A stretch of 1,008 nt of DNA, taken from NCBI RefSeq assembly GCF_003334255.1, contig NZ_QOWU01000177.1; one strand, given 5' to 3'. Source of the DNA: Escherichia coli. Its GTDB lineage: Bacteria > Pseudomonadota > Gammaproteobacteria > Enterobacterales > Enterobacteriaceae. The stretch's first letter is position 1, and every line of letters begins with the position of its first letter. This document shows positions 1-1,008 of this stretch, in pieces. The translations under genes and the position numbers were made by a program. Under the pieces are notes generated by a model. That model made no database searches. It was given only the letters and a program-made list of their open reading frames with translations, and was not told where the DNA came from.

Positions 1-912
1 GTCTATGACTGGCTGGATGCACTGAAAGATCCCAACGGCCTGAAAACCTTTGTGAACACCACGCTGGGCGAGACCTGGGAAGAGGCCGTGGGCGAAAAAC
101 TCGATCACCAGGTGCTGATGGATAAGGTTGTGCGTTACACGGCTGCGGTGCCTTCCCGGGTGGTTTATCTGACGGCGGGCATTGACTCGCAGCGAAACCG
201 TTTTGAGATGTATGTCTGGGGATGGGCTCCGGGAGAGGAAGCCTTTCTGGTGGATAAAATCATCATTATGGGGCGTCCCGATGAGGAAGAGACGCTGTTA
301 CGTGTGGATGTGGCGATCAACAAAAAATACCGCCATGCAGACGGAACCGAAATGACCATTTCCCGTGTCTGCTGGGACACCGGAGGGATCGATGGCGAAA
401 TTGTCTATCAGAGGTCAAAAAAACACGGTGTTTTCCGGGTGCTGCCGGTAAAAGGTGCATCTGTTTATGGCAAGCCGGTGATCACCATGCCAAAAACCCG
501 CAATCAGCGGGGCGTGTATCTGTGCGAAGTGGGGACGGACACCGCAAAAGAAATTCTCTATGCCCGTATGAAAGCCGATCCCACGCCTGCGGATGAAGCC
601 ACGTCGTATGCCATCCGTTTTCCTGATGATCCGGAGATTTTTTCGCAGACAGAGGCGCAGCAACTGGTCGCGGAAGAGCTTGTGGAGAAGTGGGAAAAAG
701 GAAAGATGCGTCTGCTGTGGGATAACAAAAAGCGGCGTAACGAAGCGCTGGACTGCCTGGTGTATGCCTACGCGGCATTACGTGTGTCCGTGCAACGCTG
801 GCAGCTTGATCTGGCTGTACTGGCAAAATCCCGGGAAGAAGAGACGACCCGGCCAACCCTTAAAGAACTGGCAGCGAAGCTGTCCGGAGGAGTGAATGGT
901 TACAGTCGCTGA
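1..912 (+). CDS. Terminase large subunit (lambda gpA-like), C-terminal ~303 codons; 5'-partial, with the gene continuing upstream of the window. Covers the presumed cos-cleavage nuclease region and the C-terminal portal-interaction tail.
   Basis: Frame +1 is open from base 1 ([28 protein letters not shown]...) through the TGA at 910-912, so the ATG at 52 in the ORF track is an internal Met, not the start. The translation contains strings I recall as close to lambda gpA C-terminal sequence (e.g. [52 protein letters not shown]). The product name comes from this recalled similarity, not from a database search. The next gene is a gpW homologue, as in lambda gene order Nu1-A-W-B. Confidence 0.85.
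886..890 (+). promoter_or_regulatory. Shine-Dalgarno sequence (GGAGG) for the gpW-like gene, embedded in the 3' end of the terminase coding sequence.
   Basis: GGAGG at 886-890, with a 5-nt spacer (agtga) before the ATG at 896. This is a canonical ribosome-binding-site arrangement. Confidence 0.7.
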
Positions 913-1008
913 ACTGCAGGCGCTGCGTCAGGCGCGCCTTGATTTATTAACCGGTAAACGGGTGGTGTCTGTCCAGAAAGATGGTCGCAGAATTGAATAT
1001 ACGGCGGC
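896..1008 (+). CDS. Head completion / head-tail joining protein (lambda gpW-like); 3'-partial, running off the right edge of the window.
   Basis: ATG at 896-898 in frame +2 opens an ORF reading [37 protein letters not shown]. This aligns without gaps to the lambda gpW N-terminus as I recall it ([37 protein letters not shown]), with the TGKRV.(S/T)VQKDGRR core conserved. A GGAGG Shine-Dalgarno sits 5 nt upstream. Position immediately after a terminase large subunit gene matches lambda synteny. This ORF is missing from the supplied track only because it is truncated by the window edge. Confidence 0.8.

Follow-up and report, generated by a model that had tools for sequence, protein, structure and literature searches.

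A terminase–adaptor gene junction of phage 21 type in a 1,008-nucleotide stretch of Escherichia coli DNA

The stretch examined here, 1,008 nucleotides of contig NZ_QOWU01000177.1 from the Escherichia coli assembly GCF_003334255.1 and called the window below in its full length, carries parts of two overlapping genes on the plus strand. Bases 1–912 form the 3' part of a large terminase subunit gene (the homologue of phage 21 gene 2 and lambda A), encoding residues 340–642 of a 642-residue protein, and bases 896–1008 form the 5' part of a head-tail adaptor, or head completion, gene (the homologue of phage 21 gene 3 and lambda W), comprising codons 1–37 of 68 plus two bases. Frame 1 is free of stops from base 1 to the TGA at 910–912 and yields a 303-residue C-terminal protein fragment, while the second frame opens with the ATG at 896 and runs past the window end after 37 residues; the window accordingly holds the 3' 47% of gene A and the 5' 54% of gene W. 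The guanine-cytosine (GC) content is 54% overall and 61%/43%/58% at codon positions 1/2/3, as expected for coding sequence in frame 1. Nu1, cos, portal and capsid sequences are all absent from the 1,008 bases. A preliminary description, made from the letters alone, had proposed the order A then W, and both genes are indeed present, on the plus strand, in that order. Taken with the relatives described below, the window almost certainly marks where two late genes meet in an Escherichia coli phage or prophage that is lambdoid and of phage 21 type.

Two late genes and their products

The terminase fragment (303 residues) aligns by BLASTP with lambda gpA residues 340–638 at 61% identity (E 3e-127). 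The Pfam family GpA_nuclease (PF20454) spans window residues 1–263 with an E value of 1.5e-63, and PHROG 15, annotated as terminase large subunit, matches the terminase frame with an E value of 5.1e-136. In the full 642-residue protein, taken from a record with an identical window, GpA_ATPase (PF05876) covers residues 47–293 (E 2.1e-54) and is followed by GpA_nuclease at residues 323–601. It follows from this domain order that the window encodes the maturation, or endonuclease, half of the protein, with the motor half lying outside.

The endonuclease (genome maturation) domain of the large subunit is placed at bases 1–789 on the plus strand from the Pfam match, the conserved residues and a fold model. 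The conserved residues come from an alignment of the terminase fragment with 11 homologues found by tblastn (12 sequences, down to 30% identity), in which 24 columns are invariant. Five of the invariant residues are acidic, namely D62 (nt 184–186), E69 (205–207), D126 (376–378), E248 (742–744) and D251 (751–753), all on the plus strand, and in the numbering given by the BLASTP alignment they equal D401, E408, D465, E586 and D589 of lambda gpA. Searching the literature for D401 of gpA turned up nothing but a paper on T4 gp17, and the lambda numbers are alignment-derived positions rather than published catalytic residues. By analogy with lambda and phage 21 work, these acidic residues would take part in catalysis.

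An AlphaFold model of the terminase fragment, built on the 12-sequence alignment, has a mixed beta-sheet core, a mean predicted local distance difference test (pLDDT) score of 85 and a predicted template modelling (pTM) score of 0.81. Foldseek comparison of the model with the PDB gave three matches at E <= 0.001 (probability 1.00), all of them nuclease-domain entries of phages SPP1 and Sf6, followed by terminase entries of human cytomegalovirus (HCMV), phage HK97 and herpes simplex virus 1 (HSV-1) with E values of 0.003–0.013 and probabilities of 0.92–0.99. The model shares the RNase H-like fold class with SPP1 G2P (2WC9), Sf6 gp2 (5C15), HCMV UL89 (3N4Q), HK97 TerL (6Z6D) and HSV-1 pUL15 (4IOX), although sequence identity between these nuclease domains and the window product is just 11–13%. 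SPP1 and Sf6 are headful (pac) packagers and not cos-cutters. On the model, the nuclease domain of the window is predicted to be an RNase H-like fold with conserved acidic, putatively metal-binding residues.

The C-terminal tail of the large subunit, window residues 273–303 (bases 817–909, plus strand), is divergent from lambda and predicted helical. Only 8 of its 31 residues (26%) are identical to lambda, compared with 60–73% identity in five segments spanning residues 51–272 and 48% in residues 1–50, and the distant homologues of the 12-sequence alignment are not alignable across it. Helices are predicted at residues 271–283 and 287–295, with lower model confidence. In work on lambda/21 hybrids, the last ~32 gpA residues are said to carry portal specificity, and the sharp C-terminal drop in identity seen in the window agrees with that reported role. 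By comparison with lambda and phage 21, the tail is probably a phage-type-specific segment for docking on the portal of the prohead. In lambda, genetic suppression identified the portal as the prohead target of gpA (Yeo and Feiss 1995, as cited in PMC2366019).

The 37 adaptor residues encoded in the window match lambda gpW residues 16–37 with 77% identity over 22 residues (E 1e-12). For profile tests the full 68-residue adaptor was taken from a record that contains the window exactly. It shows 55% identity to lambda gpW over 51 residues (E 1e-19) and matches Pfam gpW (PF02831) at 1.3e-22, PHROG 75 (head-tail adaptor Ad1) at 3.1e-29 and NCBIfam NF047331 (phage_HTJ) with 50.3 bits against a curated cut-off of 33. 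The chain of the solved lambda gpW in PDB entries 1HYW/8K38 matches residues 4–66 of the full-length adaptor (E 3.3e-15). A DGRR motif at residues 29–32, which includes Arg32, is identical in lambda gpW and in the window product; in lambda, the adaptor ring under the portal consists of twelve gpW molecules, with Arg32 clamping the DNA, and this ring offers the site for gpFII (PMC10721106).

The two genes overlap by 17 nt (896–912), with the adaptor in the +1 frame, whereas lambda A and W share a 4-nt ATGA overlap with W in the -1 frame. The Shine-Dalgarno sequence GGAGG of the gpW-type gene, read from the sequence at 886–890 on the plus strand, sits 5 nt before the adaptor ATG, inside the end of the terminase gene, and the phage 21 record annotates a ribosome-binding site at the equivalent position (2611–2615). 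Since the Shine-Dalgarno sequence and the start of the adaptor gene both lie inside the terminase gene, the two proteins are probably translated in a coupled way from one late transcript, as work on lambda and phage 21 would suggest. RNA of the A/W junction (875–960) folds no better than shuffled sequences (z 0.26). A TGA in the adaptor frame directly precedes the adaptor ATG in both the window and lambda.

Relatives, gene order and distribution

A megablast search against phage records gave 19 matches, all of them Escherichia phages and all covering the whole window. PhiR5_1 is 100% identical, five other PhiR phages are 99.6% identical and phage 21 (M81255, OL657228) is 98.7% identical, the 18 records besides PhiR5_1 ranging from 98.4 to 99.6%. 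In phage 21, the match falls on gene 2 (terminase large subunit, 709–2637) and gene 3 (proximal head completion protein). No lambda record is among the 19 matches, and a global alignment of the window with the corresponding lambda segment gives 64.5% DNA identity. The nearest named and characterised relative is phage 21, not lambda.

Phage 21, a classical lambdoid phage, belongs to the genus Jouyvirus and lambda to Lambdavirus; phage 21 reportedly gives viable recombinants with lambda, in the lambda/21 hybrids of the Feiss laboratory. Phage 21 agrees with the window alleles in gene lengths (642 and 68 codons for the two proteins), in the 17-nt overlap and in where the ribosome-binding site lies. 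Thirteen bases differ between the two, nine of the differences being synonymous and four changing amino acids, all in gp2: S52/A, V104/A, T127/I and A197/V, with the window residue given first. The gp3 of phage 21 is identical to the window product over its 37 residues. The four substitutions look conservative, and otherwise the window does not depart from phage 21. With lambda, the window genes share family, domain order, gene order and gene sizes, at protein identities of 61% (gpA) and 55% (gpW). A literature search for PhiR5_1 returned irrelevant results only, and no papers on the phage 21 head genes were found in the open-access literature.

The records that share the window have the lambdoid late-gene order cos-Nu1-A-W-B-C/Nu3-D-E-FI-FII-Z-U-V-G-T-H, of which the A-then-W step lies within the window. 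Phage 21 has, in succession, cosN, cosB (R3, I1, R2, R1), gene 1 (Nu1 type), gene 2, gene 3, portal, protease/scaffold and decoration protein, and then the major capsid protein and the FI, FII, Z, U, V, G/GT and H types. Of the records that contain the window exactly, two were inspected, PhiR5_1 and a prophage in the chromosome of strain STEC17-183 (NZ_CP075652.1, 68–90 kb); neither differs from it at any base, and in both it is embedded in a full late region of lambda type. A gene for a Nu1-type small subunit stands directly upstream in each, and the portal, an S49 protease/scaffold, the decoration protein, the major capsid protein, FI, FII and tail genes stand downstream. The sequence GGGCGGCGACCT, the cohesive-end 12-mer of phage 21 and lambda, occurs 188 nt before the start of the Nu1-type gene in the STEC17-183 chromosome, and PhiR5_1 has a cos-region match at the corresponding position upstream of Nu1. 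In STEC17-183, replication, Q-region, tRNA and lysis genes come before the module, and genes for the tail and tail fibres come after it. The preliminary description had predicted from synteny that Nu1 and cos would lie upstream and a portal gene downstream, and this is true in all inspected records that share the window (phage 21, PhiR5_1 and STEC17-183).

The STEC17-183 prophage also carries three tRNA genes (Ile, Arg, Arg; segment 11304–11553) between a DNA methyltransferase gene and the lysis region, and a hokD toxin gene. Among ten distant phages inspected, an adaptor or head-tail joining gene directly follows the terminase gene in six: Vibrio phage K290, Pseudomonas phages MD8 and Persinger, Xanthomonas phage FoX3, Rhodobacter phage RcFrancesLouise and Faecalibacterium phage Lagaffe.

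Upstream of the window, STEC17-183 (segment 18276–19012 and 18984–19400) and PhiR5_1 are less 21-like than within it. For their cosB region, identity is about 75% with phage 21 and about 80% with lambda; for their Nu1-type protein, it is 65% with 21 gp1 and 62% with lambda Nu1. Their large subunit shows 93% overall identity to 21 gp2; the differences cluster in the first ~140 residues, of which the first 17 are unaligned, and the remainder is ~99% phage 21-like. The cosB region, the Nu1-type protein and the first ~140 residues of the large subunit stand about as far from phage 21 as from lambda. Judged by these identities, the large-subunit gene seems to contain a mosaic joint, which would combine a different DNA-recognition set with a 21-type nuclease and portal-docking half. 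Module exchange of this kind is the usual pattern in lambdoid phages. If the source of the window shares the arrangement, the window would be the constant half of a natural chimeric terminase, joined within the large-subunit gene to a recognition half with a third, possibly uncharacterised packaging specificity, although this is a speculative extension to which only a slim chance is given.

Window matches occur in 1899 of 5426 complete Escherichia coli genomes (about 35%), at a median of two and a maximum of five places per matching genome. The places are chromosomal in 3042 cases and on plasmids in 7, and seven chromosomes are 100% identical to the window. Matches in the plasmid database PLSDB are mostly very large records or short E. 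coli contigs. The large E. coli "plasmid" records with the module include CP061244.1 (1.41 Mb), CP088669.1 (730 kb) and NZ_CP114132.1 (439 kb), among others; for such very large records, chromosome fragments or misassigned contigs are likelier than genuine plasmids. Two further records, from Aeromonas veronii (NZ_CP121813.1, 38.9 kb) and Aeromonas caviae (NZ_CP097210.1, 39.0 kb), share only 40–46 nt with the window, at positions 40–85. Both carry a gene annotated as terminase gpA endonuclease subunit, and the shared stretch encodes a conserved motif. These ~39-kb Aeromonas "plasmids" may be phage-plasmids or episomal prophages.

Probable packaging mechanism and competing explanations

In lambda, the small subunit assembles the complex on cosB with integration host factor (IHF), after which the C-terminal endonuclease of the large subunit nicks cosN symmetrically, and the complex then binds the procapsid portal and switches to ATP-driven translocation (PMC7229814). 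By analogy, the product of bases 1–912 would be the RNase H-like, metal-dependent endonuclease that forms the C-terminal half of the large subunit, and the holoenzyme formed with a Nu1-type small subunit would nick concatemeric DNA at cosN to leave 12-nt cohesive ends. The phage-specific C-terminal tail would dock the enzyme-DNA complex on the portal of an empty prohead, and the ATPase half, encoded upstream of the window, would pump the DNA in. After packaging, twelve of the 68-residue gpW-type adaptors would bind under the portal and retain the DNA, and the ring so formed would create the site for an FII-type stopper and then the tail. This known mechanism of cos cutting and portal docking agrees with the predicted fold, with the invariant acidic residues and with the gene neighbourhood.

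None of the findings contradicts this reading, which does have limits. The window cuts both genes, and intactness and the flanks in the source thus lie beyond view. The partial terminase is without a matching NCBIfam model. In the fold comparison with other terminase nucleases, TM-scores are modest, at 0.44–0.55 for the top matches and 0.24–0.55 across all those listed above. A PDB sequence search with the terminase fragment gave no match, leaving no gpA-family structure at sequence level, which is why the predicted model and the fold search were used. The allele also departs from phage 21 gp2 at the four residues listed above.

That the DNA is phage lambda itself or a lambda laboratory vector would be suggested by the lambda gene order and by the 12-nt cohesive end, which is the same in the matching records, but no credence is left to it: DNA identity is only 64.5%, protein identities are 61% and 55%, lambda is absent from the megablast matches and the gene overlap is 17 nt instead of 4 nt. 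Phage lambda proper was accordingly rejected as the identity, the sequence falling short of near-identity to the lambda reference. It is also very improbable that the window contains an extra element, whether a gene overlapping in a different frame or on the other strand, a small RNA or a hairpin with a regulatory role where A meets W. At 593–895 (plus strand, frame 2, which is the adaptor frame), an open frame of 100 codons does give a weak match to phrog_2022 (E 6.6e-6), yet the terminase frame matches the same family, annotated as unknown function, over the same DNA at 2.3e-37, and lambda has stops in both alternative frames across the stretch equivalent to 593–895, where the open frame is thus not conserved. 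Given the far stronger match of the terminase frame, phrog_2022 probably groups terminase fragments that were miscalled or frameshifted, and the 593–895 frame was rejected as a gene, its match being read as a database artefact. PHROGs 16406, 3028, 15657, 22352 and 2022 all resemble families built from fragments of this terminase gene. Among the alternative open reading frames of 71–124 residues only that at 593–895 matched a PHROG, the three antisense frames having no phage protein family match. Terminator-like hairpins number four where 1.2 are expected (sd 1.1), with hairpin and T-run sites at 330–344 and 497–511 (minus strand, antisense in the terminase gene) and two overlapping sites at 920–936 (plus strand, in the first adaptor codons); they are weak and stand without other support. 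A permissive Rfam scan of both strands found no match at E <= 1, no promoter-like site was found in the window, and the only repeat in it is a trivial 12-nt two-copy one, with no inverted repeats.

Two further readings leave the genes as they are and concern where they reside. The same genes could belong to a defective or cryptic prophage remnant, in which they would be unused for virions and would be decaying or serve as recombination stock. Many lambdoid prophages in E. coli are defective, matching genomes carry a median of two and up to five copies, and in the STEC17-183 prophage, whose window is identical, several early and lysis-region genes are frameshifted or truncated. Against this, both frames are intact within the window without a premature stop, nine of the 13 differences from phage 21 are synonymous, the identical 1,008 bases occur in an isolated phage, PhiR5_1, with E. 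coli C as its recorded host, and the late region of STEC17-183 is complete from Nu1 through the tail fibre genes, leaving a remnant unlikely though still worth keeping in mind. Slightly less probable again is an origin in the genome of a free phage, as virion DNA resembling that of PhiR5_1 or phage 21, rather than a chromosomal prophage: the 100% identity to PhiR5_1 and the 98.4–99.6% identity to 18 other phage records would fit it, but chromosomal copies are far commoner (3042 places in the 1899 genomes, seven records at 100%), and both readings give the same genes the same roles. Because the same bases are found in a free phage genome too, the window alone does not settle "prophage" or "intact".

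The identification of the window as a late-gene junction of phage 21 type, in a lambdoid phage or prophage, stands through these comparisons, and with it what had been proposed from the letters. The strong similarity to lambda gpA and gpW at protein level is borne out by the 61% and 77% alignments, which lie well outside what chance would give, and the clear divergence from lambda by the DNA identity and the lack of a lambda megablast match. Searches with both translations gave strong terminase and gpW family matches (GpA_nuclease, PHROG 15/75, phage_HTJ, Pfam gpW), and the flanks of the exact-window records contain the Nu1, cos, portal and major capsid genes. The proposed lambdoid phage or prophage, as is common in Enterobacteriaceae, agrees with the nearly always chromosomal matches in over a third of the E. 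coli genomes and is here refined to phage 21 type. The observation in the preliminary description is confirmed and its interpretation supported; the sequence of the window was already known and brings nothing new to the biology; studies of the enzyme family, of its mechanism and of this allele group go back to the 1980s.

The gene pair as a marker of lambda/21-type prophages

The A/W pair reliably marks where the late (head) operon begins in a prophage of lambda/21 type. On a full contig, the pair helps to fix the boundaries and the orientation of the prophage, with cos and Nu1 expected about 1.7–2.6 kb upstream of the window and the portal gene about 0.1 kb past its end.

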